Below, in pieces: positions 926 to 47,869 of a DNA stretch of 64,000 nucleotides. Positions within the stretch are counted from its first letter, which is position 1. Each line of letters opens with the position of its first letter. The translations under genes and the position numbers were made by a program. The DNA is taken from the IMG/VR virus record IMGVR_UViG_3300045988_180675, positions 96,001 through 160,000 of that record; one strand, given 5' to 3'. A model generated the notes under the pieces. The model saw only the letters and a program-made list of their open reading frames with translations, was not told where the DNA came from and ran no database searches. Source of the DNA: a virus.

Positions 926-968
926 TTCTCCATTTCTCATCAAATAATTGGACATAAGTATTATGCAA
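926..968 (-). promoter_or_regulatory. type-A promoter/leader cassette, copy A1
   Basis: Read on the minus strand: CATAAT (960-965), then 21 nt, then TTATTTGATGAGAAATGGAGAA. Same architecture as ten other copies. Confidence 0.5.
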
Positions 969-981
969 GAAGAAAAGAAAT

Positions 982-1004
982 AAAAAAAGACGGAATAACC
1001 GTCT
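982..1004 (-). terminator. intrinsic terminator after the helicase gene
   Basis: Hairpin AGACGG-AATAA-CCGTCT (988-1004), followed on the minus strand by a T-run (plus-strand A-run 982-989). Confidence 0.75.
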
Positions 1005-1010
1005 TTCTTT

Positions 1011-2969
1011 TTATAACTGAGCTAATGCCTCTTCGATTTCCTGTAGGAAACGGTTGTATGTTGGGTTTTCAATCGTTCCAAAAGCGATTTCTTGTCCATA
1101 TAAAGATAGGCTATCACGAGCACGAGTGATCATTACGAATAATAAACGTCGTAGCTCTTCAGCTTTTCTTGTGGATAATTTCTCTTTTTCGAATCCTGAA
1201 ACAGAACCAAATACATGTTTCCATTCTAAACCTTTTGATGAGTGTACTGTAATCAACATTACACCATGACCTAAAACAGAACGCTTGAACATCATGTTAT
1301 CTCCAAACGATAAGAAGTTTGAAACATAATACATGATTTCGTCGGCATCCATATCATTGAACTTTTCGGAAAAATTCAATACTGCTTCATCGCCATGTGA
1401 AATCTCCTGGATAAATTCCATGATCATAAGTTTCTTCGCAGCTGGATCTACAGCTTTGATTGTGTTCACCTTATTTACCACTTCATTTACATAGGTAGAC
1501 ATGATTTCTGGTCCAGCTTCAATAATATCTCCATCAAATAAGGCGTTTGCTACTTCTAGCATATCCATATTTGCATCGGCTGCATCTGGTTTAGAAATTT
1601 CTCGAATAAATTTCAACATCGCTATGACACGGTGGTTTTCAATTAATAACTCTGGGAAACCAAACTTAGATGGAATTCCAAAAGCTGTTAAGCGATCTGC
1701 AACGCTCTTTAACTCTCCCTTTGAGAAAGCTAAGAAAGCAATGTTGTCAGGATCTTCACCTGCATCAATAAGAGCCTTGATATCACGAGCAATCGTATCG
1801 ATTTCTCCTTTTTCAAGATTCTTGCCCATATTTAATTTCGATGGCTTCTGATCGTATTTTCTCTTGAATTTCTGTACCGTTGGCATCATGCCTGGTTCAC
1901 GAGATGCGATAAGAGTCTTATCGATCTTATTTTTATTTCTATCAATAATGATGTTTGCTAACTTAATTACGTTTTCAATACATCTGTAATTGATATCCAT
2001 AAATACATCGTGGATGTCGAGTGTAAGCTTATTTCCATCCTCGTCTTTCTTATATAAATAATCTCCTAAATTGATTAAGAAATCTGGAGAAGTATTCATT
2101 AACGATTCATAGATCGCTTGTGAATCATCTCCCACAACAAGTAAAGACTTAAATGACTTCATGTTGATCAAGTGATTTAATAGCTTCATCTGATCTTCCG
2201 AAGTATCCTGTGCTTCATCAACAATAATGTGAGCAAAGTAGAAATTATCATCTAAAAATGTTGGATTGTCATCTAAAATTTTTAATGCCAATACGATCAT
2301 TTCGTCGAACGTGATTACTGGAGCTTGGAACTCATTATCGAATCCCTTCTTCATAGAATCATATTCTGGATACATCGCAATGATCTTCAAGGCAATATTT
2401 GATGGTAAATCCACTTTTCTGTCTGTTAAGAGTTCCGATACGTCATTATAGGCAATATCAGACAACGCTCTTCCTTCCACAACCAGTCTTGAAACTCGAT
2501 GTAGAATCATAGACATGATATCTAATGCTCCAGTCGTACCGTAACCTGAGCTTGTATAGTTCTGGAAATGAACTCCAGTCCACTCTACGATCTCATGACG
2601 GCGAATCAGAGCATCACACATTGCTCTATCTTGTACTTCATCAATAACTGACGGAATATGTCGATATCCTAATGTGTGCCACATTTTTTTAATAATTTCG
2701 AACTCGAAAGCATGGAAAGTTGTAGCGGTCAAACCACAAACAGGCTTTCCAACCATCTTATTTACACGAGCTGCCATCTCAGAAGCACCATTCTTAGAGA
2801 ATGTACTTAGGAAGATTTCTTCAGGTTTAGCACCGACATCTTCTAAAAGATGCTTAACTCTAGCACTAATGACCTGTGTCTTTCCTGTTCCTGCACCCGC
2901 TACAACTCTGTTGTAAGGATGCGTTGTATTGATGGCTGCTAATTGCCCATCATTAAACTTGATTTCCAT
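1011..2969 (-). CDS. UvrD/Rep/PcrA-family SF1 DNA helicase
   Basis: 652 aa. Motifs AGAGTGKT (Walker A), VDEAQDT (II), VGDDSQAIY (III), NYRC (IV), VHSSKGLEW (V), ITRARD (VI). GGAGG SD upstream of the ATG at 2969. Confidence 0.9.
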   Translation of the reverse strand: MEIKFNDGQLAAINTTHPYNRVVAGAGTGKTQVISARVKHLLEDVGAKPEEIFLSTFSKNGASEMAARVNKMVGKPVCGLTATTFHAFEFEIIKKMWHTLGYRHIPSVIDEVQDRAMCDALIRRHEIVEWTGVHFQNYTSSGYGTTGALDIMSMILHRVSRLVVEGRALSDIAYNDVSELLTDRKVDLPSNIALKIIAMYPEYDSMKKGFDNEFQAPVITFDEMIVLALKILDDNPTFLDDNFYFAHIIVDEAQDTSEDQMKLLNHLINMKSFKSLLVVGDDSQAIYESLMNTSPDFLINLGDYLYKKDEDGNKLTLDIHDVFMDINYRCIENVIKLANIIIDRNKNKIDKTLIASREPGMMPTVQKFKRKYDQKPSKLNMGKNLEKGEIDTIARDIKALIDAGEDPDNIAFLAFSKGELKSVADRLTAFGIPSKFGFPELLIENHRVIAMLKFIREISKPDAADANMDMLEVANALFDGDIIEAGPEIMSTYVNEVVNKVNTIKAVDPAAKKLMIMEFIQEISHGDEAVLNFSEKFNDMDADEIMYYVSNFLSFGDNMMFKRSVLGHGVMLITVHSSKGLEWKHVFGSVSGFEKEKLSTRKAEELRRLLFVMITRARDSLSLYGQEIAFGTIENPTYNRFLQEIEEALAQL

Positions 2970-2998
2970 TTTTTATTTTCCTCCTTAGCCTTAATGGC

Positions 2999-3838
2999 TT
3001 ATTCTTCTTCATCTATAACTGTGATAGGAGCTTTCTTGTATTTGCAAATATTGAAGAATTCACAAAACTTACAATTTTCTTCTAATTGCTCTTCTTCTCC
3101 TACTCCATTAATAAACTTTTGAATGATCGGACTCATATAGGTATCGATTTCAGCAGTGTTTCCCATGTAATCTCCTTCAAGACTTACGATGTTCCCACTT
3201 CCGAAGAATGATTGCTCATTTAAGTTCCATGTTTGGGTATCGGTATCCTTCTTTAGAAAATAGAAAGATGCTGTGATATTTTTGAACCCCATTTGACGAC
3301 CATACAAAATTGTTGCGTACAATTGAAGATCTCTCTTCATTGCGTTCTTATTGCCTTTTTGTGTTACATTTGGTTTACCAGTTTTATAGTAAACAAATTC
3401 CACACGATCTTCGCCATCTATACCTTTAGATACAAACGCTGCATGTGGAGCTACCATAATTGGCTTGAGCTGATCTGATACTGAAACAAGTCGTTTTGCG
3501 AAGAAAGATGGAACACGATGTTCATCTCTTAAATATCGCATGACTCTTCTCCAGTCTGCTAATAAAACCTGCATTTTCTGCTGTGGGTTTAAAAAGCCAG
3601 CCTCAATATAACGGGAATTCATGTATTCCATGATATTCCGATCTTCCCGCTCATTGTAACGAAGTGCTTGCTGGATCGTATCTGCACAAATTTCAGCACG
3701 CTTATAAAAGGTGCCAGTTGGGACTGATGACTTAATAGAATCACCAAGAACCCCTTTGAACGTTCTACGTTTTTTACAAGCTCCATATTCTGATAATGAG
3801 CTTAATCGATCATAATCGATTTTTGTTTGATCACACAT
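2999..3838 (-). CDS. PD-(D/E)XK nuclease with Cas4/AddB-like Cys cluster
   Basis: 279 aa. IDGED...EFVYYKTGK core, QLYATILYG motif, one N-terminal Cys (YGACKK) plus C-terminal CKFCEFFNICKY (C-x2-C-x5-C) as in 4Fe-4S Cas4/AddB nucleases. Strong SD. Confidence 0.7.
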   Translation of the reverse strand: MCDQTKIDYDRLSSLSEYGACKKRRTFKGVLGDSIKSSVPTGTFYKRAEICADTIQQALRYNEREDRNIMEYMNSRYIEAGFLNPQQKMQVLLADWRRVMRYLRDEHRVPSFFAKRLVSVSDQLKPIMVAPHAAFVSKGIDGEDRVEFVYYKTGKPNVTQKGNKNAMKRDLQLYATILYGRQMGFKNITASFYFLKKDTDTQTWNLNEQSFFGSGNIVSLEGDYMGNTAEIDTYMSPIIQKFINGVGEEEQLEENCKFCEFFNICKYKKAPITVIDEEE

Positions 3839-3856
3839 TTTATTTTCCTCCTAATT

Positions 3857-5404
3857 TTACTTGAATACGATCAATTTCTTTAGACATGATGCACTTTCGT
3901 TGTAGACAATGATTTCATCATTTCTAAATCCTACACCGCCACCTGCATGATACCATGTTGAGTCGTATCCTTTTTCCTTAAACATGTTCAATAACTCTGT
4001 TGTCTTTTCTGGAGCACCACCGATGCATCCATTTGGTTCGTATGTGTTACCTGTGGCAACACGATAAACGCCCATAATGGAAATCTTACCATCAATACCT
4101 CTATCTCTTGAATATGTGCTTGAGCAATATCCAGCAGACTTGAGAGGATTGTTAGCAAAGTATGAACCATTACCAAATGCCTTACCACAAATACGTGCGT
4201 TAGGATTTAATAATAGCCCCATCTTAATGATACTAACCCAGTTGCAGTTTGCAGAACCATGGAACAGATCATGCTCAACGCTGTTGAACATTCCGTTTTT
4301 AAGGTATTCTTCATAACGAACAACTTGATCATGTGGTGTGATGTCATATACTTCAACGACATCAATCTTTCCAGAAAGCTTATACTCTTTAATCGTTTGT
4401 TCCATCTCTTCAGGTGTTTCCTTGCGTACAGAGACATTTCCGAATGGACTCTCAAATTTTTCTGTCTTGCTATGTGTTTGTGAAACTAATGCTTCCATAG
4501 AAGACACAATTTTGTTTACCCAATCTAGTTTTGCCTCCATCTGTTTGAACAACTCTTCTTCTGTAAGAGGAATCGTTGGAACATGGAAATCCTTGATTTG
4601 GAAATTCTTACCAACCTTTGGTGCTGCAATTGCAATAAAGTCATCAATACATCCATTGAAAAGCGTTGCATCTGTTAGATTGCACATCTTGTTGTACAAC
4701 TTACGTGCAGATGTCACTTGTCGGCGTGTATATGGTGATGATGAAGAATAGAAATTCATTTCAAAACCACTTTCTGATAACGTCTCTTTCGCAACTTGAA
4801 TCAGCCATCTGTAAAGCGTAACGGCTTCATCATCTGATGTTTCTTCAACTGTTGGCTTTTTGAAGAATGCAGAAATCTTTGATTCATCTTCGTCCTGCTT
4901 TAATTCTTCCGTGTAGTCCTTAAATCCAGCGGCAAGCTTTTGGTAATATCTTAACCAATAAAGTTGCGATGGCTGAGCTTTATGAACCGTACCGTCCTCA
5001 AGTCGATCCATTCCCTTTTTACCAATAATACCAGACACAGCACCAATATTAAGTGTACGTGGTCCCATATTATTTGGGTTAAGGTTGTAACGAGAACGCA
5101 AATTAGTTTCAGCATCAACGTGCCTTAGTAATTTTTGTTCATATAGGCTCTTTGCTAATCTGAAAGTATCAGCAGTGATACGAATAACGATGTTATCGTC
5201 TTCTTCATTTTTGACTCTTTCATAGATTTCTACATGAGCCTCTTTGATTCCATCTTCGCTTTTAAGATGAATTGAGTTTGGAACTGGAAAACCATCTGCG
5301 AACAATGTTTCCGCAACCTTTTTCCATAATTCTCCTTCTTCGTTGATACCAGCTGGGAAATCCAACTGATACACTTTTCCTGTTGTTTCCATCGTAACTT
5401 TCAT
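3857..5404 (-). CDS. PARP-like ADP-ribosyltransferase (WGR-like / helical regulatory / H-Y-E catalytic architecture)
   Basis: 515 aa. The C-terminal ~165 aa align by eye with the PARP1 catalytic core: LFHGSANCNWVSIIKMGLLLNP (PARP1 [22 protein letters not shown]), GNGSYFANNPLKSAGYC (GKGIYFADMVSKSANYC), NDEIIVYN (YNEYIVYD). The preceding helical segment resembles the PARP regulatory domain. Confidence 0.85.
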   Translation of the reverse strand: MKVTMETTGKVYQLDFPAGINEEGELWKKVAETLFADGFPVPNSIHLKSEDGIKEAHVEIYERVKNEEDDNIVIRITADTFRLAKSLYEQKLLRHVDAETNLRSRYNLNPNNMGPRTLNIGAVSGIIGKKGMDRLEDGTVHKAQPSQLYWLRYYQKLAAGFKDYTEELKQDEDESKISAFFKKPTVEETSDDEAVTLYRWLIQVAKETLSESGFEMNFYSSSSPYTRRQVTSARKLYNKMCNLTDATLFNGCIDDFIAIAAPKVGKNFQIKDFHVPTIPLTEEELFKQMEAKLDWVNKIVSSMEALVSQTHSKTEKFESPFGNVSVRKETPEEMEQTIKEYKLSGKIDVVEVYDITPHDQVVRYEEYLKNGMFNSVEHDLFHGSANCNWVSIIKMGLLLNPNARICGKAFGNGSYFANNPLKSAGYCSSTYSRDRGIDGKISIMGVYRVATGNTYEPNGCIGGAPEKTTELLNMFKEKGYDSTWYHAGGGVGFRNDEIIVYNESASCLKKLIVFK

Positions 5405-5480
5405 TTTATTTTCCTCCTTAATTTACGATATTTTATATATAAAATTTATTCGATGTTTTTTATTTTCCTCTTTTTTAATA

Positions 5481-5520
5481 TTCTCCATGCTCATCAAATA
5501 AATACATATATATCTTGCTA
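5481..5520 (-). promoter_or_regulatory. type-A promoter/leader cassette, copy A2 (PARP operon)
   Basis: Minus strand: CAAGAT -10-like hexamer (5512-5517), 19 nt to ATC, then TTATTTGATGAGCATGGAGAA. Confidence 0.5.
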
Positions 5521-5532
5521 TAAAAAAGACAA

Positions 5533-5560
5533 TAAAAAAAAGAAGGAAATTACTCCTTCT
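5533..5560 (-). terminator. intrinsic terminator
   Basis: Hairpin AGAAGGA-AATTAC-TCCTTCT (5541-5560), flanked by A and T runs. Confidence 0.75.
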
Positions 5561-5570
5561 TCTTTTTTTA

Positions 5571-5756
5571 CTACTCGTAAAATTTGTAATGTGTTCTTGC
5601 AAAGTAACGACTTGCCACATAAGCAGAAAATGAGATTAAAGCCATAAAACATAAGAATGTTGTCATTGTTTCCCCAATTCCAACGAAAATACAGGCTACA
5701 AATAGAAGTGCAACACCAACCAGTATGCACTTCAAAGCCAATAAAATTAGCTTCAT
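5571..5756 (-). CDS. small two-TM membrane protein (paralog of 6529..6702)
   Basis: 61 aa and hydrophobic. SD AAGGGAGAG upstream. Shares IGE(T/N)xTxFLCF...AYVAS(R/K)YF with the 57-aa protein. Confidence 0.65.
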   Translation of the reverse strand: MKLILLALKCILVGVALLFVACIFVGIGETMTTFLCFMALISFSAYVASRYFARTHYKFYE

Positions 5757-6528: not shown

Positions 6529-6702
6529 TTAAACTTCCATCACAAAATATTTTGATGCAACATAAGCTGCGAAAACCAACACTACTACAAAACATAAGAA
6601 TATTGTAGTGTTTTCACCGATTGCGACAAAAGCAACCGCTCCAAGCAATACAAATACTGCTGCCAAGATAAAATTGTAAGCATACTTTAATAAATTTAAC
6701 AT
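6529..6702 (-). CDS. small two-TM membrane protein (57 aa)
   Basis: Start trimmed to the ATG at 6702 (MLNLLKY), preceded by AGGAGGGAAATTAAA. Paralog of 5571..5756. Confidence 0.65.
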   Translation of the reverse strand: MLNLLKYAYNFILAAVFVLLGAVAFVAIGENTTIFLCFVVVLVFAAYVASKYFVMEV

Positions 6703-6730
6703 TTTAATTTCCCTCCTAGCCATTTCGGCT

Positions 6731-6770
6731 TTTCCAATAATCATCAAATAATTACACTTAAATTATGTCA
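6731..6770 (-). promoter_or_regulatory. type-A promoter/leader cassette, copy A4
   Basis: CATAAT (6762-6767), then 19 nt, then TTATTTGATGATTATTGGAAAA. AGCC-GAAAT-GGCT hairpin (6718-6730) abuts the SD. Confidence 0.5.
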
Positions 6771-6825: not shown

Positions 6826-7200
6826 TTACCAAGCAAAACAAATCTTAAAATCGTTATCTAATAATTCGCAATCTTCACGAAGAATAATTTCTACATTTTT
6901 ATTGCTCGGTTTTACAGCACTCAAAATAAAGTTCCCGAAATTTTCTGAGAATTTACTTTCTTCAACGCTTGCGAGTTCTTTGAATTCATCAGGTGCTGAT
7001 ACAACAACGTTGTCTGATTCAAATTCTGAAATGTATAAATTGTCTAGCTTTATACTATAGTGATGACCAGCCACATGTTCAACGCTGTATTCGTTTGCGT
7101 GCATTACAAACGACACATCGCCAGCATTGATTCTGATTGCTTCGATCTGTAATAGCTCTTCAAGATTTTTTGCTGATATTAGCTCTAATTCCAAATTCAT
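6826..7200 (-). CDS. hypothetical protein (124 aa)
   Basis: ORF with a GGAGGAAAATTAAAA SD lying inside the end of the upstream gene. Third gene of a three-gene operon. Confidence 0.65.
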   Translation of the reverse strand: MNLELELISAKNLEELLQIEAIRINAGDVSFVMHANEYSVEHVAGHHYSIKLDNLYISEFESDNVVVSAPDEFKELASVEESKFSENFGNFILSAVKPSNKNVEIILREDCELLDNDFKICFAW

Positions 7201-7202
7201 TT

Positions 7203-7607
7203 TTAATTTTCCTCCTGGGCTTTTTTCGCCTCTTTTTTATATCGAATCTTGTAGAGGATATTTCCCTTGCGGTCACGTCCTCCATTTACTACTGTGGCGT
7301 TTTCTTCGAAGAATACCTTTTCCTGCTTATACAGTTCGCTAACACGCTTTATGCCAAGCTTTTTAGCAAAGTGTGCAGCTGTATTAAGTGCCATGCCTTC
7401 TTCATGGTTTTCATTTGTAAAAGCACCAAAGAAATTTGTAGACTTCCCTGGATCCAACATGGCAACTGCTAGGTGTGCGTGGATCTCAAAGATACAGGCA
7501 ATTTCATTTGCTTCTCTTTCTTCTTCCACTGTTAATTTTTGCCCTTTGAAAAAGGCTTTTGAAAATAGCTCTTTTGAGCGTCTTTGTAAATCTCCCATTC
7601 TACTCAT
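7203..7607 (-). CDS. hypothetical protein (134 aa), tandem paralog of 7624..7953
   Basis: Shares R(M)xxLxxRxxELxxxxFxxxxKLTxEEExExxEIxCIxxIH and EK/RVxExYxxExxFFxxxATV with its neighbour. SD present. Confidence 0.65.
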   Translation of the reverse strand: MSRMGDLQRRSKELFSKAFFKGQKLTVEEEREANEIACIFEIHAHLAVAMLDPGKSTNFFGAFTNENHEEGMALNTAAHFAKKLGIKRVSELYKQEKVFFEENATVVNGGRDRKGNILYKIRYKKEAKKAQEEN

Positions 7608-7623
7608 CTTTATTTTCCTCCTT

Positions 7624-7953
7624 TTAAATATCGTAAGATGTAGAGTTGTACGAACAACCTTCTGAATCTGTGAAAACGTCTTTAGTAACTGTAGCGTGCT
7701 TGTCGAAGAATTCTACTTCTTTAGCGTAGATTTCCTTAACTTTTTCTTCTCCTAATGTTTTTGCATATTCTTTAGCATAGTTTTTGTAACCATTAAAGAA
7801 GTCTGTTCCATAGACCAAACAAGAATGTATCATGGAAATACATCTTATTTCCTCTAATTCTAATTCCTCTTCTGCTGTTAATTTGCGTTCATTAGTGAAA
7901 CTGATTTGAAGTAGTTCACGCTCTCTCTGTTCTAATCGTTCCATTCTTTTCAT
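7624..7953 (-). CDS. hypothetical protein (109 aa), tandem paralog
   Basis: ORF with an AGGAGGAAATAAT SD. Similar to 7203..7607. Confidence 0.65.
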   Translation of the reverse strand: MKRMERLEQRERELLQISFTNERKLTAEEELELEEIRCISMIHSCLVYGTDFFNGYKNYAKEYAKTLGEEKVKEIYAKEVEFFDKHATVTKDVFTDSEGCSYNSTSYDI

Positions 7954-8005
7954 ATTATTTCCTCCTAGCCTTACTGGCTTTTATTTTTCGCCTTATTCGA
8001 ATATT

Positions 8006-8045
8006 TTCTCCATGATCATCAAATAAAGTCACATTTATTATGTGA
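8006..8045 (-). promoter_or_regulatory. type-A promoter/leader cassette, copy A5
   Basis: CATAAT (8037-8042), then 19 nt, then TTATTTGATGATCATGGAGAA. AGCC-AGTAA-GGCT hairpin (7967-7979) abuts the SD. Confidence 0.55.
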
Positions 8046-8057
8046 TATAGAAAGAAA

Positions 8058-8082
8058 GAAAAAAGAGGCTTATTGCCTCTTC
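8058..8082 (-). terminator. intrinsic terminator
   Basis: Hairpin AGAGGC-TTATT-GCCTCT (8064-8080), followed by a T-run. Confidence 0.8.
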
Positions 8083-8087
8083 TTTTT

Positions 8088-8444
8088 TTAATACAAATCT
8101 TCAAATTCTGCTCCTAAATCAAGCCCATCCTCTTCAAATACTGTCAAAACAGAATTATCTGAGGCTAGTATTTCATGAATATTTTCTTTACCTTTATCTG
8201 ATAGCGTATCTAGTGATTGTCTACATTTATGATATTTCTTGTTCTGACCACTAACTGTAATTGTTGCGTTATCAATAATAATAACGTTCTGTTCTTCATC
8301 AAATGACGATGGTGTATTAAAGTGATTAAATTCATCTTTAGAAAATTCTAAAAAGATATCCGTCTTAATTTCATGTGCTGTCAGCTTCAAGAGTTTAAAC
8401 TTTTTACATCTTGGTTTCTTTGTTAATTTTAATATAATCTTCAT
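8088..8444 (-). CDS. hypothetical protein (118 aa)
   Basis: ORF with an AGGAG SD about 10 nt upstream. Unusually long (~130 nt) leader downstream of cassette A6. Confidence 0.6.
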   Translation of the reverse strand: MKIILKLTKKPRCKKFKLLKLTAHEIKTDIFLEFSKDEFNHFNTPSSFDEEQNVIIIDNATITVSGQNKKYHKCRQSLDTLSDKGKENIHEILASDNSVLTVFEEDGLDLGAEFEDLY

Positions 8445-9785: not shown

Positions 9786-10256
9786 TCAACCTTCCATAAT
9801 CTTGTAAACTTCTTCCATAATGGATGGAATCATTTTTTTATTGATTCGTTCATATTCTGTTTCATCCTGGATTACTTCTTTTACTGGGTTTGATGTGTAA
9901 TGGGCACCGCCTCTGTAAATCATATCGGAGTATTCTCGAGCGGTGTAAAATGCTTTCATAAGTTCTAACAGTTTCCAGATTTCTGAATCCGTGAAAGGCG
10001 TTTCAGCAAAAAACTCTTTGAATGCAGTGTGACCATCTTTGTTTTTGTTAAAAAATAAACTATCAAAATGTTGATGGCTACTAATATCTCTTGAACGTGA
10101 AGGGCAATTGTTGTTTGTGTATGTTTCAACATAACCGAAACCCCAGTACCATTTACAATCCCAACTTCCAGCCTCTAACCAGTATAATGTACCGTCATTG
10201 TCTTTACCTAATAAATAAATGTCTTTTCCAAAAGCATGATTTTTTTGTTTTTTCAT
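9786..10256 (-). CDS. hypothetical protein (156 aa)
   Basis: Start trimmed to the ATG at 10256 (MKKQKNHAFG), preceded by AAGGAGGAAAATAAA. Confidence 0.65.
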   Translation of the reverse strand: MKKQKNHAFGKDIYLLGKDNDGTLYWLEAGSWDCKWYWGFGYVETYTNNNCPSRSRDISSHQHFDSLFFNKNKDGHTAFKEFFAETPFTDSEIWKLLELMKAFYTAREYSDMIYRGGAHYTSNPVKEVIQDETEYERINKKMIPSIMEEVYKIMEG

Positions 10257-10275
10257 TTTATTTTCCTCCTTTTTT

Positions 10276-10560
10276 TTACCAATGAATGATAAAATTTTTG
10301 TTTTTCTTATCGCAATCAACCTTAAATCCCTTGTCTAAATAATGTAGTAACAAGCGATTTGTGCTGAAAGCATCTAATGAAGTGTCGTTCCAAACCAATC
10401 GTTGATGGCTTCCTTTGCCACAAGTGTATGGTAAGACAATATGTGTATGATTATATGAAGCCTCTTCAATGAGTTCATTAACCATTACAACAATACGCCA
10501 CAAACTTGGGCAAACCTTCTTTGATCCAAGGTTATTTCTAGCAGTCTTTGCAGTAATCAT
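10276..10560 (-). CDS. hypothetical protein (94 aa)
   Basis: ORF abutting the upstream stop, with an AGAGAGG SD inside the upstream gene. Confidence 0.55.
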   Translation of the reverse strand: MITAKTARNNLGSKKVCPSLWRIVVMVNELIEEASYNHTHIVLPYTCGKGSHQRLVWNDTSLDAFSTNRLLLHYLDKGFKVDCDKKNKNFIIHW

Positions 10561-10561
10561 G

Positions 10562-10927
10562 TTAGAAACCTCTCTTGATAATCTCGGCAGCAGCAGAGCC
10601 TACATCGCTCCACTTACATTGATGATTTGGACCGCCAATCCAATCTTTAGCGTGTTCCATTGAACGGATTAGAACGCTTTTACTCCAAGCAAAATATCTA
10701 ACGTCTGATATTGAAACATAAACAAATTTTTCACCATTTGTTAGTACGGCAGAGAAACAATAATGATTTTTATTGAAAGTATGTAACTCTAGTCCGTTTT
10801 CCTTTGCCATCTTCTTTAAATCCGAACGACAATCTCTTTCGAATTGTAGATAATCTTCTCCTGTACCGCATCCAGTTGAGAAATGGTGTTGGAACCATTT
10901 ATTACTTGTTGCTTTTAATGTTGTCAT
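10562..10927 (-). CDS. hypothetical protein (121 aa)
   Basis: ORF with an AGGAGGAAAATTAAAA SD. Confidence 0.65.
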   Translation of the reverse strand: MTTLKATSNKWFQHHFSTGCGTGEDYLQFERDCRSDLKKMAKENGLELHTFNKNHYCFSAVLTNGEKFVYVSISDVRYFAWSKSVLIRSMEHAKDWIGGPNHQCKWSDVGSAAAEIIKRGF

Positions 10928-10950
10928 TTTTAATTTTCCTCCTATTTTTC

Positions 10951-11265
10951 TTAAAAACCAATCTGATCTTCAAAGTGATCGTAAATAACAGCATCGATAT
11001 TGGTCCAATATGTACAATTGCAATCGTAATCGCCTTCAAAAGCGTATCGCTTGGCACACTCTTCAATATCTTTGTCGCTATATTTTAACCATGAGAAATT
11101 GTCCTTGATTCTACTAACGATATCTTCTTTAACATGATTAGCCCATAATCTTCTATAGATATAATTTGAAGTTGAATAGTTTAATTCTGTAAGAAGCTCG
11201 TCGAGCTTTTCTCTGTTTATACGGTCAAGCTTATCAATTTCTTTTTTTAGTTCTTTGATTTCCAT
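10951..11265 (-). CDS. hypothetical protein (104 aa)
   Basis: ORF with an AGGAGGAAAATTAAA SD. Confidence 0.65.
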   Translation of the reverse strand: MEIKELKKEIDKLDRINREKLDELLTELNYSTSNYIYRRLWANHVKEDIVSRIKDNFSWLKYSDKDIEECAKRYAFEGDYDCNCTYWTNIDAVIYDHFEDQIGF

Positions 11266-11278
11266 TTTAATTTTCCTC

Positions 11279-11539
11279 CTAATATGTAATCAAATCCATC
11301 ATTTTATTCACAAAAGAAACGCATTTTGTTAATCCTTTGTGATCGCAGGTGAATGTTTTCTGTTGATATTCATCATCATATTCTGCTTCAACGAACATTA
11401 GATTTGAACCTGATGAATAGCTCAGTCGGATTTCACCATATCCAACAGAGTTTAAGAATGTATATTCTCCACTCTCATCATTTTCGTCAAACAGCTCTAA
11501 TAAGCCATCTAACTCATTTTTTAATTCCTCTAAAAACAT
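11279..11539 (-). CDS. acidic hypothetical protein (86 aa)
   Basis: ORF with an AGGAGGAAAATAAG SD. D/E-rich. Confidence 0.6.
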   Translation of the reverse strand: MFLEELKNELDGLLELFDENDESGEYTFLNSVGYGEIRLSYSSGSNLMFVEAEYDDEYQQKTFTCDHKGLTKCVSFVNKMMDLITY

Positions 11540-12275: not shown

Positions 12276-12317
12276 TTCTCCATAATCATCAAATTAAAGT
12301 ACAATTATATTCTGCTA
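12276..12317 (-). promoter_or_regulatory. type-A promoter/leader cassette, copy A8 (eight-gene small-ORF operon)
   Basis: TATAAT (12304-12309), then 17 nt, then TTAATTTGATGATTATGGAGAA. No terminator until 9452-9478. Confidence 0.5.
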
Positions 12318-14197: not shown

Positions 14198-14809
14198 TGA
14201 CATATATTTTTTGATGTCTATATAATCTTCTACGACTTTTTCTTTTTCCGTAATTTCGGCTCTAAGAGCATCCATTTCTTCATTTATCTCTATGAGTTGT
14301 TTCTTAATTTTCTCTTTTTCAATAGATTCAGTTTGTAGTTCTTCGATTCTTCTTTGTAACATCTTTATCTTCGGTTCGAGATTGATCATCCAAATATTCT
14401 TGTCAGATAACATTTTACTGAAATCACTAATTTCTTTTTGGATCTTTTCAATTTCTTCTGAACCTTTTGTAGCGAACTTGTATTCAGGAGAATCTGTTAT
14501 TTCTTCCAGTGTTTTTCTCTTTAGTACAATTGTGGCTTTGCACTCGGTTACATGACAACTCCTTTCTTCAACGGTATCAAGAACGAAGTTGAAATCTGTA
14601 TAGATGTTCTCAAGTGCGATCTTAAACTCGATAACATCTTTTAATTGTGCATAAAAAAGTATTTTTGCTCCATCAAATATCTTTTGTTCGTAATGTTTAT
14701 CTTCTAAGTAGTTGTGACCTACGATATTTTCGTAATGTGAATGATCGACAATGAGCGGACAAACACCTCGCTCTTTTGCTTTTCTCAAAAAATTTATATC
14801 TATGTTCAT
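14189..14809 (-). CDS. hypothetical protein with C-terminal coiled coil (206 aa)
   Basis: ATGA start/stop overlap with the RecG-like gene. K/E heptad-rich C-terminal half. Confidence 0.65.
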   Translation of the reverse strand: MNIDINFLRKAKERGVCPLIVDHSHYENIVGHNYLEDKHYEQKIFDGAKILFYAQLKDVIEFKIALENIYTDFNFVLDTVEERSCHVTECKATIVLKRKTLEEITDSPEYKFATKGSEEIEKIQKEISDFSKMLSDKNIWMINLEPKIKMLQRRIEELQTESIEKEKIKKQLIEINEEMDALRAEITEKEKVVEDYIDIKKYMSKE

Positions 14810-16836
14810 TTATTTGTTCCCTCTTTCTTTTTCTTCTTTTTATCCTTGTAAAGTTCTTCTAACTCTTCATGTTCCTTGTATTCTGCAATAAGGAAATTTC
14901 CGATGTTTTTCTTGATGCATTCTTCTGCCAGCTTTGCAGCCTGTTGAAATAGTTCTGGATTATCCAGCATTTCTTCTACAAACTTGTTAATTCCAGATTG
15001 ATTTTGCCCGATTAAGTCTCCTGTTCCACGTTGACGAAGATCCGCTTCTGCGATCTTAAATCCATCGTTTGTCGCTACCATTGTCTGTAATCGCTCGTTA
15101 TCGGCTTCTTCTGCAATTAAGTAACAATAAGATTGATATGACGATCTGCCTACACGACCTCTTAGCTGGTGAAGTGTTGCTAGTCCGAACCGATTTGCCT
15201 GTTCAACAACCATAACAGTCGCAGATGGAACATTTACACCAACTTCTATTACAGTTGTAGAAATTAGAATATCACAAGTGTGATTATTACTATCTGCAAA
15301 AGCTGATATTGTCTTGGCAACATCTGTTGACTTCATTTTCCCATTTACGACTCCCACGCCAATTCCTCTAGGAGCGAAAAAATCTCTGTATAACTTACTC
15401 ATCTGCTCAATGCTGACAATATCTGTATTGTCATTATCTTCAATTGCAGGGCATACTACGTAACATTGATGACCAGCCTGTATTTGCTCTAGTATAAGAT
15501 TAAATACCTCGTTGTGTTCATCCGAAACCTTTGTGATGATCGGAAGTCTTCCTGCTGGTTTCTGTGTGATCAGCTTAATTTCTTTTCCTTGTCCGTATAG
15601 AACGTTTGCCATTGTACGTGGAATTGGAGTAGCAGACATAGAGATACTATGTACTCCATCCTTAGCCTTCTTGATCAGGGATTCTTTTTGTTCCACGCCA
15701 AATAGATGTTCTTCATCTGTAATAACTGATCCAAGATTATGGTAGACTACATCACTAGAAATGCAGGAGTGAGTTCCTATAATGAAATGAATTTCTCCAG
15801 ACTGGATTCTATTTAAAATTTCGTTTCTTTCTTTTTTAAGAAGTTTGCTATGTAAAAATACACAATTCAAACCGAACCGTTTTGCATATTCAGAGATTTC
15901 TTCATAGTGTTGTCTTGCCAAGATTTCTTTTGGAGCCATCAACACAGACTGGTATCCATTCTCAGCCGAATAAAACATCATTGCAGCGGCAACAATCGTT
16001 TTCCCACATCCAACATCACCTTGCAACAAAATGTTGTTTCTAATGCCGTTTCTGGCGTTTAAAAATATCTCATTTAAGATTGCTGCTTGTCCGCCTTGCC
16101 CTTGTGTCAAAGCAAATGGTAAAGATCTTATAAAGCTCTGTGTTAAAGACCAACTCTTATATTTTAAAGATGTGTTCTTGGGGGTTTCTACCCTATTTCT
16201 CTTTAGGGATAAATTAAAGTAAAGAAGATCATTGAAAAGAATTCTTCTTTTTGCCTCTTCTTCTATTTGTTTGTTTTGCGGATCATGAAGAACTTGTAAT
16301 GCCTGTTTATATGGCATAAAACCAGCAATAAGATGTGGTTCAACAATTTCTTGTTGCATTAACATGAAGTTTTCTCTGATTTTAGCTATTTCTTTTTCGT
16401 CTGCATCCTTTAATGATGGATATACTGTATGAGTATGAGGCTGATATTGGCTTGCTAAATAGATGCCTGTTACATCTACAATAGAATATCCATATTCGTC
16501 ATATTTTGGCTCTCCACATACAACAACATCCTTACCAGAGAAGCTGGCATACATGTTTAGTAGGAATACATTATTAAATAGCACGACTTTATAATCCATA
16601 CTGCCCTTGAAATAAAAAACAAGATAGGTCTTTCCAGTTGCCATTCTCTTCTTTTGTACGCTCACCTGTTTTCCAAGAACCGCACAATGACCATTTGCCT
16701 GCTGAATATCTAATGGCTTTCCGTATCGAATCGCTTTACGTGGGAAGAACTCTAAAAAATCTCTTACTGTAAAGAGGTGTTTTTTATTGAGTGCCGCCAG
16801 TGTTTTTTCTGAGATATTTAATCTTTTTAGATCCAC
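14806..16836 (-). CDS. RecG-like SF2 DNA helicase
   Basis: Motifs GDVGCGKT, MAPKEILARQH, DEEHLFGV, SATPIPRT, QLRGRVGRS. The track start ATG at 16863 overlaps the -10 hexamer of promoter B2. The GTG at 16836, preceded by GAAAGGA at 9 nt, is the more plausible start. Confidence 0.85.
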   Translation of the reverse strand: MDLKRLNISEKTLAALNKKHLFTVRDFLEFFPRKAIRYGKPLDIQQANGHCAVLGKQVSVQKKRMATGKTYLVFYFKGSMDYKVVLFNNVFLLNMYASFSGKDVVVCGEPKYDEYGYSIVDVTGIYLASQYQPHTHTVYPSLKDADEKEIAKIRENFMLMQQEIVEPHLIAGFMPYKQALQVLHDPQNKQIEEEAKRRILFNDLLYFNLSLKRNRVETPKNTSLKYKSWSLTQSFIRSLPFALTQGQGGQAAILNEIFLNARNGIRNNILLQGDVGCGKTIVAAAMMFYSAENGYQSVLMAPKEILARQHYEEISEYAKRFGLNCVFLHSKLLKKERNEILNRIQSGEIHFIIGTHSCISSDVVYHNLGSVITDEEHLFGVEQKESLIKKAKDGVHSISMSATPIPRTMANVLYGQGKEIKLITQKPAGRLPIITKVSDEHNEVFNLILEQIQAGHQCYVVCPAIEDNDNTDIVSIEQMSKLYRDFFAPRGIGVGVVNGKMKSTDVAKTISAFADSNNHTCDILISTTVIEVGVNVPSATVMVVEQANRFGLATLHQLRGRVGRSSYQSYCYLIAEEADNERLQTMVATNDGFKIAEADLRQRGTGDLIGQNQSGINKFVEEMLDNPELFQQAAKLAEECIKKNIGNFLIAEYKEHEELEELYKDKKKKKKEGTNK

Positions 16837-16861
16837 AACTGTTATCCTTTCTATACTATAC

Positions 16862-16885
16862 ATTATAGCATATAACAGTATATAT
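16862..16885 (-). promoter_or_regulatory. type-B promoter, copy B2
   Basis: Minus strand: ATATACTGTTATATGCTATAAT (extended -10). Confidence 0.65.
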
Positions 16886-16889
16886 TGGA

Positions 16890-16920
16890 AGAAAAAGAAA
16901 AGAGAGGATTTAACCTCTCT
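16890..16920 (-). terminator. intrinsic terminator with the stop codon in its loop
   Basis: Hairpin AGAGAGG-ATTTAA-CCTCTCT (16901-16920), followed by a T-rich run. Confidence 0.7.
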
Positions 16921-19090
16921 GTAATAAATGTGCGAGTCCTGTTGTTCTCATGATGCACTTGTTTGAAACAATACCTTTTTCCAAAGCATTCCCTTCTGAA
17001 ATAATGATATTCTTTTGCTTTGCTCTTGTAATTCCAACGTAAACAAGACTTCTTTCTAACATCCCTTTTGGTTTTTGAGGTAGCAATATTAGTGAGGTAT
17101 CGCATTCTGAACCTTGTGATTTGTGGATCGTAATCGCATACGCTAGAGCTATATCTTCCAGATTTTCTCCATATACCTGAAAGATCGTTCCATCATATAA
17201 TTGGATTTCTACAACTGGAGTTATATAGTTTTCAAAATGGAAAATATTCACGATTTTTCCTTCGTCTCCATTCAGATACCCAACCTTATAGTTATTTGAT
17301 AACATAATGACTTTATCACCTTTTGAAAAAGTGGTTTTATTAAACACAATGGATTCTTCTTGCCTAAAGTTCAGCATATTATGTATCTGGTTATTAAGGT
17401 TAAAAGTGCTGACAGGGAACTTTTCTTTTTTGATCGGTGAGTAAAGCTTTATATTGTACTTACTAGCATCTGTAGACTTCATCAAATCGATCGTTATCTG
17501 GTTCATTTCATCTTGGTCCTTAGCTCTGATGATTCTAAATGTATCATCTTCTAATAGATCACATCTTCCTTGTCTGATTCGTATACTATTCTCAATAATG
17601 GCGGAGCCTTCTTGTTGGCGGTAAACATTTGTTAAACGAACAAAAGGTATTTTTTGGGACTTCATAAAATCATGTAATACATTTCCTGCCCCCACAGAAC
17701 CCAACTGGTTTTCATCTCCAACGATTAGTAACATTGAACCCTGTTTGATTCCTGTTAATAACATAGAGCAAAGTTCATTATCTACCATAGAAAATTCATC
17801 AGCAATAATCAAATCATAATCCAATTGGTTATGCTCATTATTGTATTGGATAATTTCATTTTCTCCAAAAGGTCTGATATCAAGTAATTTATGAATCGTT
17901 TTAGCATCATTCCCTGTTACCTGACGAATACGTTTTGCAGCCGTTCCTGTTGGAGCAGTCAATGCGATTTTTGCATTAGGGAACATCTTTCGATAGTAAT
18001 GTAGTAAACCGTTAATAACAGTTGATTTCCCTGTTCCTGGACCGCCTGTTAAAATAGCAATCCCTTCTTTTTGCATGAGCGTAAATGCACGCTTCTGTTG
18101 TTCGTCGTATTTGATTCCGCATTCTTTCTCTATCTCTTCAATAATCGCTTCTTTTGGTTTTATAAAACGTCTATTACTGATTAAACGAACCACATTTTCC
18201 TGAATCTTCTTTTCAAATTCGTAAACTTTTCTATGGTAAACATAGATCTGATTATCAAATACCTCAAACTTAAATTTATCTGGTCTATTTAAGATAATTG
18301 CCAATATGTGTAGTGGGCTTGTTCTGTATCCTATCTTTGTACTTTCTTCGATGTATTCTGCCATTGAGAAAAAATTTGTTAATGTGATACAGGTATCTCC
18401 ACGCCTATCTAACGTGGTAAATACTTCTCGGATCAAAGCATATACCCGAATCGGATCACTGGCTATAAATCCCTGTTTTTTGGCTAAAGATTCTCTTTGT
18501 GCAAAAGTTAATCCTGCTTTAAAAAGTATGTAAGGGTTCTTTTTTACAATAGATAAGGATCTATTTCCATATTTGCTATATATTGATTTGGCTCCAAGAT
18601 AACTTCCCCCAGCAGATGTAATAAAGTCAACAAGTTCTTGCATATCTGAATATTGATTGATTTTATTTACAAAACTTTTGGCAATACTATCATTTATTCG
18701 TGGAATCTTTGCAAGCTGTTCTATGGCATCTGGTGATTTACAAAAAGAAAAAATATCGCCATTGCTTAGGTTTATGATTGCGGAAGCAGCTGCGGTTCCA
18801 ATATTAGAGAATTTTCCACTGCTTAAAAAGGATAATGTTGTAGTGTCATTTTTGCTTAGTGGCTTACACTTGCTTGATATAAAGATGTTTCTACCATTTA
18901 TAACTTCGATATTGCCCTCAAGAAAGACTGGCGTACCAGTATCCAAGTCGGTAGCAATTCCTTTGCATAATACCGTGTTGTATTGAGGGTCTAATGGAAT
19001 CGTTTTATCTTCTGTTGAAACAGAAAAATATGTCATTCCTGATAATTCATCTTTTCTAATGACCTTTTGCAGAACGCCGTAAAACTCCAT
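16910..19090 (-). CDS. RecD2-like SF1B helicase (726 aa)
   Basis: GGPGTGKST, IIADEFSMVD, LIVGDENQLGSVGAG, TIHKSQGSE, YVGITRAKQK. SH3-like segment GDKVIMLSNNY. Confidence 0.85.
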   Translation of the reverse strand: MEFYGVLQKVIRKDELSGMTYFSVSTEDKTIPLDPQYNTVLCKGIATDLDTGTPVFLEGNIEVINGRNIFISSKCKPLSKNDTTTLSFLSSGKFSNIGTAAASAIINLSNGDIFSFCKSPDAIEQLAKIPRINDSIAKSFVNKINQYSDMQELVDFITSAGGSYLGAKSIYSKYGNRSLSIVKKNPYILFKAGLTFAQRESLAKKQGFIASDPIRVYALIREVFTTLDRRGDTCITLTNFFSMAEYIEESTKIGYRTSPLHILAIILNRPDKFKFEVFDNQIYVYHRKVYEFEKKIQENVVRLISNRRFIKPKEAIIEEIEKECGIKYDEQQKRAFTLMQKEGIAILTGGPGTGKSTVINGLLHYYRKMFPNAKIALTAPTGTAAKRIRQVTGNDAKTIHKLLDIRPFGENEIIQYNNEHNQLDYDLIIADEFSMVDNELCSMLLTGIKQGSMLLIVGDENQLGSVGAGNVLHDFMKSQKIPFVRLTNVYRQQEGSAIIENSIRIRQGRCDLLEDDTFRIIRAKDQDEMNQITIDLMKSTDASKYNIKLYSPIKKEKFPVSTFNLNNQIHNMLNFRQEESIVFNKTTFSKGDKVIMLSNNYKVGYLNGDEGKIVNIFHFENYITPVVEIQLYDGTIFQVYGENLEDIALAYAITIHKSQGSECDTSLILLPQKPKGMLERSLVYVGITRAKQKNIIISEGNALEKGIVSNKCIMRTTGLAHLLQRG

Positions 19091-19145: not shown

Positions 19146-19175
19146 GAAAAACAGGACTAATCAATGTCGTCCTGT
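19146..19175 (-). terminator. intrinsic terminator overlapping the stop codon
   Basis: Stem ACAGGAC/GTCCTGT with an 11-nt loop, followed by TTTTTC. Confidence 0.65.
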
Positions 19176-34525: not shown

Positions 34526-34564
34526 TTCTCCAACTCATCAAATAAATCAATATTATTATGTTAT
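34526..34564 (-). promoter_or_regulatory. type-A promoter/leader cassette, copy A10 (dnaE)
   Basis: CATAAT (34555-34560), then 18 nt, then TTATTTGATGAGTTGGAGAA. Confidence 0.5.
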
Positions 34565-34645: not shown

Positions 34646-35752
34646 CTACATGAGATTCTCTACATCCAGTAATGAGATATCGTTAGCAAATGCATCTGCA
34701 AAGCCCTCATCGTCTGACTTGGTGTAGAAATGATTGTCCATATTGATCGCTTCAATTGGCATGCTTTGTCGAACTGTATTGATTTCCCTGGAGTTTAGTA
34801 ATATTGACTTAAATTCATTCTTTGCTGCTCTAAATGCTACAGAAAAAGTTGATTTTGAACCTTCATATCCATGAGCCTTAGCGTAATTGTATAGGGCTGC
34901 ATCTTTAATAGTCTTATCTGGATATTTTGCTGCAAACTCTAAGAAGAATGTCAGAATCTTTTTTGATTTCGGTCTTAACTTATTTAACATCTCCTGAAAT
35001 TCAATTGTTTCTTCTTTTTCTCTTAATTGTTTAGCTGGATCAGCTGCATTTGGATCTTGAATCTCAAGTGTTTGTGTCTGTTCTGAACTATCCTTACGCC
35101 AATCCAATTGGACAACAACGAATTTTAATTCAAGACACTTTCTTACGGTAATAAGTGATACCTTTTTGTCAAAATGTGTTTGGATATATTTTGTAAGTAT
35201 TTCTGGAGTATACGTATTGATTCCATCTGACTGTAATTCTTGGATAGCCTTATTTACAAGCGTCATTGATCTGGCATAATGAATAGATAATTGGACAGAG
35301 CCATCAATGATCGTCGAAACTTTGGCTGAGAAGAACTTGCTTACAAATGGAGTGATAAAAGTAGTGATGTTATATTCTGGGTTATATTCCTCTAAATGTT
35401 CTGCGAGAATCACAAATACTTCCTGCATGGCTTCTTCGATGTTTTCAATCGAAGGGAACGTATGTCGAATATAATAATGCAGCTGTTTATATGAAACTGC
35501 AAAAGCTAACCCTCTTGCTAAACTCTTGATTTCTGGTTCTTCATACTTGATTGCCTTTGCGATTACTTTTTCATCTGTTTTGTTCATACGATCGAAGCCG
35601 AGATTGAATCCATTTAATCTTTCTCTAAAATAGGCGATCAGATCTGGATATTTTTCTTCTAACTCTTTTGGGATATGAACAAAATCATCAATATGAAGCT
35701 TCATTCCTTTATCAATATACATTTTTGCATCATTTTCAATTTTGTTTCGCAT
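34646..35752 (-). CDS. sigma-70-family-like transcription factor (divergent)
   Basis: 368 aa. MQEVFVILAEHLEEYNPEYNITTFITPFVSKFF (region 2.1-2.3 pattern). VQLSIHYARSMTLVNKAIQELQSDGINTYTPEILTKYI...VSLITVRKCLE (region 2.4/3.0 pattern). ETIEFQEMLNKLRPKSKKILTFFLEF (region 4.1 pattern). Region 4.2 is poorly recognisable. Confidence 0.55.
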   Translation of the reverse strand: MRNKIENDAKMYIDKGMKLHIDDFVHIPKELEEKYPDLIAYFRERLNGFNLGFDRMNKTDEKVIAKAIKYEEPEIKSLARGLAFAVSYKQLHYYIRHTFPSIENIEEAMQEVFVILAEHLEEYNPEYNITTFITPFVSKFFSAKVSTIIDGSVQLSIHYARSMTLVNKAIQELQSDGINTYTPEILTKYIQTHFDKKVSLITVRKCLELKFVVVQLDWRKDSSEQTQTLEIQDPNAADPAKQLREKEETIEFQEMLNKLRPKSKKILTFFLEFAAKYPDKTIKDAALYNYAKAHGYEGSKSTFSVAFRAAKNEFKSILLNSREINTVRQSMPIEAINMDNHFYTKSDDEGFADAFANDISLLDVENLM

Positions 35753-47829: not shown

Positions 47830-47869
47830 TTCTCCATGATCATCAAATAAAGTCATATTTATTATGCGA
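47830..47869 (-). promoter_or_regulatory. type-A promoter/leader cassette, copy A11
   Basis: CATAAT (47861-47866), then 19 nt, then TTATTTGATGATCATGGAGAA. AGCC-AAAAT-GGCT hairpin (47789-47801) abuts the SD. Confidence 0.55.

Follow-up and report, generated by a model that had tools for sequence, protein, structure and literature searches.

Here we describe a three-gene operon in a 64,000-nucleotide (nt) stretch of DNA (hereafter the window; positions 96,001 to 160,000 of the IMG/VR virus record IMGVR_UViG_3300045988_180675), which is part of a giant conjugative, plasmid-like element of a low-GC Gram-positive, probably oral, bacterium. The operon encodes a PARP-like ADP-ribosyltransferase (gene 1), a Cas4/AddB-fold protein (gene 2) and a UvrD-type helicase (gene 3). 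The trio is conserved in diverged mobile elements, in some of which genes 2 and 3 are fused into a single polypeptide. The enzyme family of gene 1 is known; a conserved, fusion-supported module of three components on mobile elements appears to be undescribed. The reading that we favour, while giving it somewhat less than an even chance, is that the operon is an element-borne DNA-end response module, and not a toxin, that would serve plasmid replication, repair or establishment.

The three open reading frames (ORFs) are co-oriented on the minus strand and lie back to back, at 5404-3857 (515 amino acids, aa), 3838-2999 (279 aa) and 2969-1011 (652 aa), with gaps of 18 nt between genes 1 and 2 and 29 nt between genes 2 and 3. 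All three are preceded by an AGGAGG ribosome-binding site, in the pattern (A)AGGAGGAAAATAAA(AA)ATG. The features of the operon and its flanks are the following, with the evidence in brackets; models were made with AlphaFold2 (AF2) and their confidence is given as the predicted local distance difference test (pLDDT).

5534 to 5567, minus strand: terminator-like hairpin at the end of the preceding small-membrane-protein gene, bounding the unit upstream (15-bp stem, then a T run)
5481 to 5520, minus strand: repeated intergenic cassette resembling a promoter (…TATTTGATGAGCATGGAGAA), some 80 nt ahead of the PARP start codon (putative promoter)
3857 to 5404, minus strand: gene 1, PARP-like ADP-ribosyltransferase, 515 aa (Pfam, sequence matches in the PDB, AF2 model, Foldseek)
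5150 to 5404, minus strand: N-terminal α/β domain of gene 1, aa 1-85 (AF2 pLDDT >90; alignments)
4910 to 5143, minus strand: degenerate WGR-like domain of gene 1, aa ~88-165 (hhalign; alignment)
4445 to 4837, minus strand: helical regulatory (HD/PRD-like) domain of gene 1, aa ~190-320 (phmmer and profile alignments to PARP2 and PARP1; model helices at aa 193-307)
3860 to 4405, minus strand: ADP-ribosyltransferase (ART) catalytic domain of gene 1, aa 334-515, with H382, Y415 and E497 (Pfam; alignments)
2999 to 3838, minus strand: gene 2, Cas4/AddB-fold protein, 279 aa, with C21 and C256-x2-C259-x5-C265 and motif residues H132, E147, Y150 and K152 (Foldseek; alignments)
1011 to 2969, minus strand: gene 3, UvrD/Rep/PcrA-like superfamily 1A (SF1A) helicase, 652 aa (Pfam UvrD domains; motifs; closest solved structures)
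982 to 1010, minus strand: intrinsic-terminator-like hairpin closing the operon (hairpin search and sequence)
926 to 947, minus strand: next copy of the promoter-like cassette, starting the following unit (motif count)

Past the 1010-982 terminator and the next cassette, a new gene begins about 870 nt from the left end of the window. Given the short gaps with their ribosome-binding sites, the bracketing hairpins and the cassette, the sequence is most naturally read as a single transcription unit. This agrees with the original prediction, made from the letters and ORFs of the window, of one unit running from the cassette at 5481-5520 to the terminator through gaps of 18-29 nt that each hold a Shine-Dalgarno sequence: the ORFs, gaps, sites and hairpins are all present. 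The cassette at 5481-5520 contains TTTGATGAGCATGGAGA, a motif found six times in the 64-kb window against 0.03 copies expected by chance. Its core, TTTGATGA-N(1-3)-(A)TGGAGA, recurs at 927-944, 5482-5498, 8007-8023, 12277-12293, 34527-34542 and 47831-47847 in a motif scan of the window; all six copies are on the minus strand and intergenic, upstream of a gene or gene block. A scan for sigma-70 promoters returned fewer sites than shuffled sequence did and none upstream of the PARP gene; it is uninformative, and the promoter assignment therefore derives from the repeated cassette. The two copies examined in detail, 927-944 and 5482-5498, sit directly after a terminator-like hairpin. The cassette may serve as a promoter specific to this element, for which the sigma-70-like protein encoded at 34646-35752 is a possible reader.

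Judged by its architecture, gene 1 encodes a genuine PARP1-3-type ADP-ribosyltransferase, with predicted enzymatic activity. The Pfam PARP model (PF00644) matches aa 334-456 with 62.3 bits against a cutoff of 26.7. In a phmmer search of the PDB, aa 163-437 match the helical domain (HD) and ART of PARP2, and a profile of the family finds PARP1 with an E value of 1e-21, at positions 169-462 over the HD and ART. The AF2 model (pLDDT 79.6) contains, at aa 193-307, the helical bundle of an autoinhibitory-type domain, and its best PDB matches in Foldseek are DNA-break-bound WGR-HD-ART fragments of PARP1 and PARP2 (4opx and 4dqy chain C, 7aeo and 6x0l), with an E value of 2.5e-18 and about 510 aligned columns for PARP1 WGR-CAT. 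The segments LFHGS, MGLLLNP, GNGSYFANNPLKSAGYC and NDEIIVYN, on which the match to the PARP catalytic core had been proposed, are all found in the translation. In the family alignment H382 and Y415 are invariant and E497 is kept in at least 90% of the family. This H-Y-E triad is in register with the HGS, YFA and xE motifs of PARP1 and PARP2 and lies in the HGS, GxGxYFA...KSxxY and DE(I/V) motifs common to every bacterial PARP aligned. Both structure and profile comparisons place the C-terminus within the H-Y-E ART group, with the triad correctly aligned.

The region ahead of the catalytic domain had been proposed to combine a helical segment like the PARP regulatory domain with a degenerate WGR region, which is the PARP1-3 layout, and Foldseek, phmmer, profile and hhalign results agree on this. 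With hhalign, aa 88-169 align to the WGR domains of bacterial PARPs of about 400 aa (probability 89%, E value 2e-6); the Pfam WGR and PARP_reg models give no match to the protein at an E value of 1 or below. The W-G-R triad itself reads S-G-I in the window and S/A-G-I/E/D across its clade. In PARP1 and PARP2, the W and R of this triad contact the DNA end and the helical domain. The domain at aa 1-85 is common to the 470-520-aa PARPs of other Bacillota mobile elements and has no counterpart in the ~400-aa bacterial PARPs. A degenerate WGR domain together with an extra N-terminal domain leads us to speculate that activation perhaps depends on a partner rather than on direct recognition of a break.

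Among known enzymes, the bacterial PARPs of Herpetosiphon aurantiacus, Clostridioides difficile CD160 and Butyrivibrio proteoclasticus (E0S444) have, like gene 1, a WGR-(helical domain)-ART layout with the H-Y-E triad, and their occurrence is likewise sporadic and shaped by horizontal transfer. E0S444, encoded on the megaplasmid pCY360, is directly homologous to gene 1, with 28.6% identity across 84% of the length. The clade of gene 1 differs from these bacterial enzymes in its additional N-terminal domain of about 85 aa and in the loss of the W and R of the triad. The break-activated eukaryotic PARP1, PARP2 and PARP3 (clade 1) are its best structural matches over WGR, HD and ART, with the HGS, GxGxYFA, KSxxY and xE motifs in common. 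However, as compared by sequence and model, gene 1 has neither zinc fingers nor a BRCT domain, its WGR triad is degenerate, its N-terminal domain is unrelated and it lies in a mobile-element operon with a helicase. The best viral match of the gene 1 protein is a 415-aa phage NAD+ ADP-ribosyltransferase.

Gene 3 encodes a superfamily 1 helicase of the UvrD type, as had been proposed. Both Pfam domains are recognized (PF00580, UvrD-helicase, 137 bits; PF13361, UvrD_C, 57.7 bits) and motifs I-VI are intact, including I (GAGTGKT), II (DEAQD), III (GDDSQAIY), NYRC, HSSKGLEW and VI (TRAR). The closest solved structures are those of Rep, PcrA and UvrD. An assignment as an orthologue of PcrA, Rep, UvrD, AddA, RecB or HelD was rejected, the best NCBIfam score being 162 bits against a PcrA cutoff of 911 and all equivalogs falling far below their cutoffs.

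Gene 2 is predicted to be a Cas4-fold protein carrying an Fe-S cluster, for which a role in binding DNA ends is possible. Its AF2 model has a pLDDT of 74.6, with low confidence at the Cys-bearing termini. Foldseek matches it to the Cas4-family protein ACE1 (9iac, E value 8e-5), Cas4 SSO0001 (4ic1), AddAB (4ceh), AdnAB (6ppr, TMq 0.51), Exo5 and RecB, and its Cas4/AddB-type matches range from 8e-5 to 1e-2 in E value and from 0.41 to 0.51 in template-modelling (TM) score. C21 and C256-x2-C259-x5-C265 form the Fe-S ligand pattern of Cas4 and AddB and are kept in 132-134 of the 136 family representatives, C256 being replaced in one clade from elements of about 300 kb. The Pfam PDDEXK_1 model (PF12705) scores 18.1 bits, below its gathering score of 22; a close relative (P0026) has a precomputed match to the same model.

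The original prediction of a PD-(D/E)XK nuclease with a Cas4/AddB-type Cys cluster thus holds for the fold and the four cysteines, but not for the canonical catalytic residues. The expected D...(D/E)-x-K is not in place: H132 stands for the motif II Asp and Y150 for the motif III Asp/Glu. The motif II position is Asp in 70% of the family. The position aligned with the catalytic motif III Asp of ACE1, Tyr in the window, is Lys or hydrophobic elsewhere and never acidic in the family. K152 is retained, with a conserved E147 five residues before it, and the best-conserved polar residues of the family (R101, E106, D200, N216 and D232) all lie outside the classical motifs. It is at these two acidic positions and in the sub-threshold Pfam score that gene 2 departs from the Cas4-family and AddB-type Fe-S nucleases (Cas4 SSO0001, ACE1, AddB, AdnA/B and Exo5), with which it shares the fold and the arrangement of one N-terminal Cys plus C-x2-C-x5-C. 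Because the canonical catalytic acids are missing, the label 'nuclease' is not established for gene 2.

The association of the three genes extends well beyond the window. In each of the 19 metagenome loci recovered by way of gene 2, a PARP homologue lies upstream of that gene, and the helicase gene follows downstream in every one whose contig reaches far enough. In elements of about 200-313 kb, the trio is kept at 45-55% identity despite one to five unrelated small genes inserted between its members. Among loci from genome collections with PARP relatives of about 460-510 aa, both partners are present in 5 of the 11 that are informative, and they are also present on B. proteoclasticus pCY360. 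The three proteins diverge broadly in parallel across loci, and adjacency is retained down to about 26-30% protein identity. Thus the three genes co-occur in related elements, and their proposed coupling is supported by a conserved and fused neighbourhood, but it is facultative and not obligatory, since each partner family also occurs alone.

Fusion of genes 2 and 3 into one polypeptide of 899-1059 aa, encoded beside the PARP gene, is seen in six distant elements of Bacillota; such loci occur on pCY360 and on Bulleidia, Clostridiales, Lachnospiraceae and Clostridium porci contigs. In the pCY360 fusion (924 aa), residues 23-283 match gene 2 (37% identity, E value 3e-52) and residues 292-898 match the gene 3 helicase (34% identity, E value 1e-109). 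The PARP gene precedes the fusion in three loci and follows it in three, with a 4-nt overlap onto the PARP start in two cases (L023 and L028). On a Rep3 plasmid, a fused protein is encoded directly after a 549-aa PARP gene. When the distant alignment of gene 2 was used as a profile in a word-indexed search, almost only known close relatives were found, and it was a full HMMER scan of 1.84 billion representatives that revealed the fused family. That scan yielded 231 relatives of gene 2. Most of them are 900-1000 aa in length and begin with the Cas4-like domain, and the single polypeptide is the usual form in other Bacillota plasmids and integrative and conjugative elements (ICEs); the two-gene form in the window is therefore a split of that architecture.

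AddAB, RecBCD and AdnAB, as well as the UvrD-Cas4 fusions and operons reported by Hudaiberdiev et al. (2017; PMC5704561), likewise combine an SF1A UvrD-type motor with a RecB/Cas4-fold Fe-S domain. The present system differs from these in the N-terminal placement of the Cas4-like domain in its fused forms, in its single motor, in its non-canonical catalytic motif and in its PARP partner. In AddA, RecB and AdnB, the nuclease domain is C-terminal to the motor, and such machines are usually heterodimers with two motors. An AddAB/RecBCD/AdnAB-type helicase-nuclease was accordingly rejected as an identity for the pair: the Cas4-like domain is N-terminal in nearly all of the 900-1000-aa representatives, and the operon has one helicase gene.

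The operon genes are under purifying selection. The ratio of nonsynonymous to synonymous substitution rates (dN/dS) is 0.04 for the PARP gene, about 0.055 for gene 2 and 0.03 for the helicase gene, measured against relatives with a gene 2 protein identity of 93-94% and a dS of 0.39-0.59. The gene 2 value comes from two relatives only (L054 and L055); two others (L052 and L053) were left out because an indel artefact gave values near 1. At this ratio gene 2, despite its altered motifs, is not decaying.

The surroundings of the operon bear on its role. The window has the one-strand gene array typical of a large Gram-positive conjugative plasmid: its GC content is about 35% and every ORF of at least 150 aa lies on the same strand, except three that overlap larger minus-strand genes. 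Genes for transfer and the cell surface encode PrgI, a VirB4-like ATPase, a 1528-aa NlpC/P60 protein, LPXTG pilins and an S26 signal peptidase. Those for maintenance and regulation encode a ParM-type actin, a sigma-70-like protein and TnpB, alongside insertion sequence (IS) elements; those for replication and repair encode DnaE, an SSB-like protein, two RecD2 proteins, a RecG-like helicase and an SbcC-like protein. Elsewhere, PARP homologues have as neighbours genes for primase, DnaE, integrase, an orphan methylase, SSB, an AcrVA2-like protein and RadC, and related loci also hold Rep3, ParA and ArdC-N. Both in the window and around the PARP relatives, the neighbours are thus replication, repair, partition and establishment genes, and not restriction-modification, CRISPR or abortive-infection (Abi) genes.

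The closest genome match to the PARP gene (98% identity) is on a contig binned with an uncultured Solobacterium metagenome-assembled genome (MAG), the binning of plasmid contigs being unreliable. A megablast search of the operon against plasmid and phage collections found no near-identical DNA. A phage origin was set aside: the IMG/VR matches to the PARP are three in number, distant and none of this family, and genes for conjugation and partition are present in the window (PrgI, VirB4-like, NlpC/P60 and ParM). The window closely resembles the Inocle elements, giant plasmid-like elements reported in most human saliva samples (PMC12340149). The resemblance is one of gene content: DNA polymerase III, RecD-like, RecG-like and SbcC-like proteins, a sigma factor, a signal peptidase, LPXTG proteins, TnpB and IS elements, ParM and parts of a type IV secretion system (T4SS); the low GC and a closest MAG of oral type agree with it.

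We propose the following model for an element-borne DNA-end response. The helicase/Cas4-like pair would load on the element's own DNA at ends, nicks or gaps, such as would arise in replication, break repair or conjugative entry. The resulting DNA-protein structure would recruit or activate the PARP by way of the enzyme's WGR-like and N-terminal domains, its helical domain being released. Once activated, the PARP would consume NAD+ and attach ADP-ribose to itself, to its partner, to host proteins nearby or to the end of the DNA, and this modification might regulate or protect end processing.

Several observations weigh against this model. The W and R of the WGR triad are replaced throughout the clade, so direct sensing of breaks may be lost, and with a gene 2 copy that has no canonical acids there may be no resection of ends. 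The Pfam-screened ORFs of the window and the precomputed annotations of related loci contain no match to a macrodomain, PARG or ARH eraser, so a role in reversible signalling fits less well. The partner is missing in about half of the full-length PARP relatives and, in the wider family of fused helicases, in three of the four members that are informative. Specifically, no PARP gene lies near the fused helicases P0118, P0150 and P0199, whose neighbours are ParA, ArdC-N, DUF3990 or AAA_5 instead; two loci (L004 and L005) have a PARP gene with RadC and no helicase, and in L015-L022 the PARP gene stands alone.

A further proposal seems to us possible but doubtful, namely self-contained, PARP-based DNA-end signalling on bacterial mobile elements, in which the Cas4-like Fe-S/UvrD helicase would engage ends or nicks and switch on the PARP1-type enzyme. 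The outcome would be either that ends and the proteins processing them are marked or capped for plasmid establishment or that NAD+ is collapsed as a suicide defence.

Of the rival explanations, the one that survives best, although we consider it rather unlikely, is a counter-defence or establishment effector. Here the PARP would modify host defence or repair proteins (AddAB/RexAB or restriction enzymes) or cap the phosphorylated ends of incoming DNA, with the helicase/Cas4-like protein shielding these ends by occupying or remodelling them. PARP1-3 are able to ADP-ribosylate DNA-end phosphates in vitro, which is consistent with capping. A Cas4-like protein that keeps its Fe-S cysteines and not its catalytic acids is likewise better suited to binding ends than to cutting them. 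The neighbourhoods of PARP homologues include AcrVA2-like, DUF3846, RadC, SSB and HipA-like genes as well as orphan DNA methylase and primase genes, and ArdC-N is found among the neighbours of the fused-helicase relatives. There is good documentation of ARTs from phages and plasmids acting on host proteins (PMC5512222, PMC7824862). However, the HD-regulated, WGR-containing layout of gene 1 points to a DNA-gated enzyme and not to a constitutive host-modifying toxin, and a leading-region placement of the operon is unsupported, as the origin of transfer (oriT) and the relaxase gene were not located.

Anti-phage or anti-plasmid defence by abortive infection, which we hold to be unlikely, would have the helicase/Cas4-like pair sense foreign ends and hyperactivate the PARP, so that NAD+ is drained or essential proteins are poly-ADP-ribosylated and the infected cell is arrested. 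NAD+ depletion is a widespread defence strategy, and the lack of a nearby eraser gene would suit it. Pairs of a UvrD-like helicase and a nuclease-fold protein are common in defence systems, and the module is patchy, mobile and facultatively assembled, like many defence modules. UvrD-Cas4 fusions of another type are found in defence contexts (PMC5704561); the unfused Cas4-like plus UvrD operon noted in Clostridiales in the same work is in a non-defence context.

Screening against known defence systems (PADLOC-DB v2) gave matches for the helicase only, to numerous models of GajB and one of a DRT helicase; neither the PARP nor gene 2 had any. The GajB matches of gene 3 reflect generic UvrD similarity, and the obligatory Gabija partner GajA (OLD/TOPRIM) is absent, so a known defence system was rejected as its identity. 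The gene neighbourhoods described above also speak against defence, in particular one locus (L004) in which the PARP gene lies beside an AcrVA2-like anti-CRISPR homologue, DUF3846, RadC and SSB, an anti-defence or establishment setting. Finally, coincidental adjacency, with the PARP and the helicase/Cas4-like pair as independent cargo sharing an operon, is suggested by the occurrence of either family without the other, but is highly improbable, as adjacency survives to about 26-30% identity and through order inversion with a 4-nt overlap, fusion or splitting, and small-gene insertions.

With respect to earlier work, bacterial PARPs, the Butyrivibrio protein included, are catalogued in three papers (PMC4245714, PMC5966428, PMC8120803), in which their targets and functions are listed as unknown. 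The activity of the Herpetosiphon enzyme requires DNA, and the C. difficile enzyme is active in vitro (PMC8120803, PMC4245714). None of the three papers mentions a helicase and two of them do not mention a plasmid, so the Cas4-like/UvrD partner is not described there. Conversely, PARP has no occurrence in the UvrD-Cas4 study (PMC5704561), and the main text of the Inocle paper (PMC12340149) mentions neither PARP, ADP-ribosylation nor UvrD. Searches combining PARP with conjugation, leading-region, anti-defence, UvrD or defence topics returned nothing relevant, the ART review of Aravind et al. (2015) not being covered. The suggestion that no helicase-nuclease-PARP module had been described is in line with the bacterial-PARP and UvrD-Cas4 literature searched.

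Bacterial PARPs have been catalogued since about 2011-2014 and two are active in vitro, yet their function is still listed as unknown (PMC8120803). A helicase/Cas4-like partnership backed by fusion and by conservation in diverged elements points to a definite partner, and to DNA ends, nicks or gaps on mobile DNA as the class of substrate, which makes the question of PARP function experimentally approachable, and cultured carriers of the module exist in B. proteoclasticus B316 (pCY360) and Clostridium porci. The module adds an unnoticed function to giant plasmid-like elements that resemble Inocles in gene content, and it is relevant to how the eukaryotic PARP1-3 break response arose. Were PARP-based signalling at DNA ends its role, with either outcome given above, it would be a prokaryotic counterpart, and possibly an evolutionary precursor, of that response, and the first physiological role assigned to a bacterial PARP. 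Were it to act by NAD+ depletion or DNA-end capping, it would represent a new type of defence or counter-defence mechanism.

Some further observations concern the related loci. In two relatives of about 100-300 kb, L066 (8011-8592 and 11808-12479) and L060 (6027-7262), the PARP gene gives only partial matches, as does the helicase gene of L066, which suggests disrupted or decaying copies of the module. A Lachnospiraceae contig (L020) carries two PARP paralogues about 1.5 kb apart (7196-8413 and 9947-11374), and on an Oscillospiraceae contig (L017, 9058-9999) a separate WGR-domain protein is encoded just upstream of the PARP gene. A DUF3990 protein (with or without DUF3791) adjoins the PARP gene on pCY360 (L006, 6820-7323) and also a PARP-less Cas4-like-UvrD fusion (L075, 5352-6041), and may be a further recurring neighbour. 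A protein with a HipA_C-like kinase domain is encoded both in the window (36042-37316, minus strand) and in L004 (4479-5597), which bears a PARP gene without the helicase; an SSB-like gene is also common to the two.

Within the window, tandem RecD2-type helicase genes (16910-19090 and 19157-21640, minus strand) are flanked by genes for a RecG-like helicase and an SMC/SbcC-like ATPase (14806-16863 and 21733-23811). The RecD2, RecG and SbcC genes form a second DNA-processing cluster, 10-20 kb from the PARP operon. Two pairs of paralogue-like genes lie closer to the operon on the minus strand. One encodes proteins of about 110-134 aa with similar N-termini (7203-7607 and 7624-7953). The other encodes two-helix membrane proteins of about 60-70 aa (5571-5756 and 6529-6747), of which the 5571-5756 gene ends just upstream of the terminator at 5567-5534 and the cassette copy at 5482-5498.

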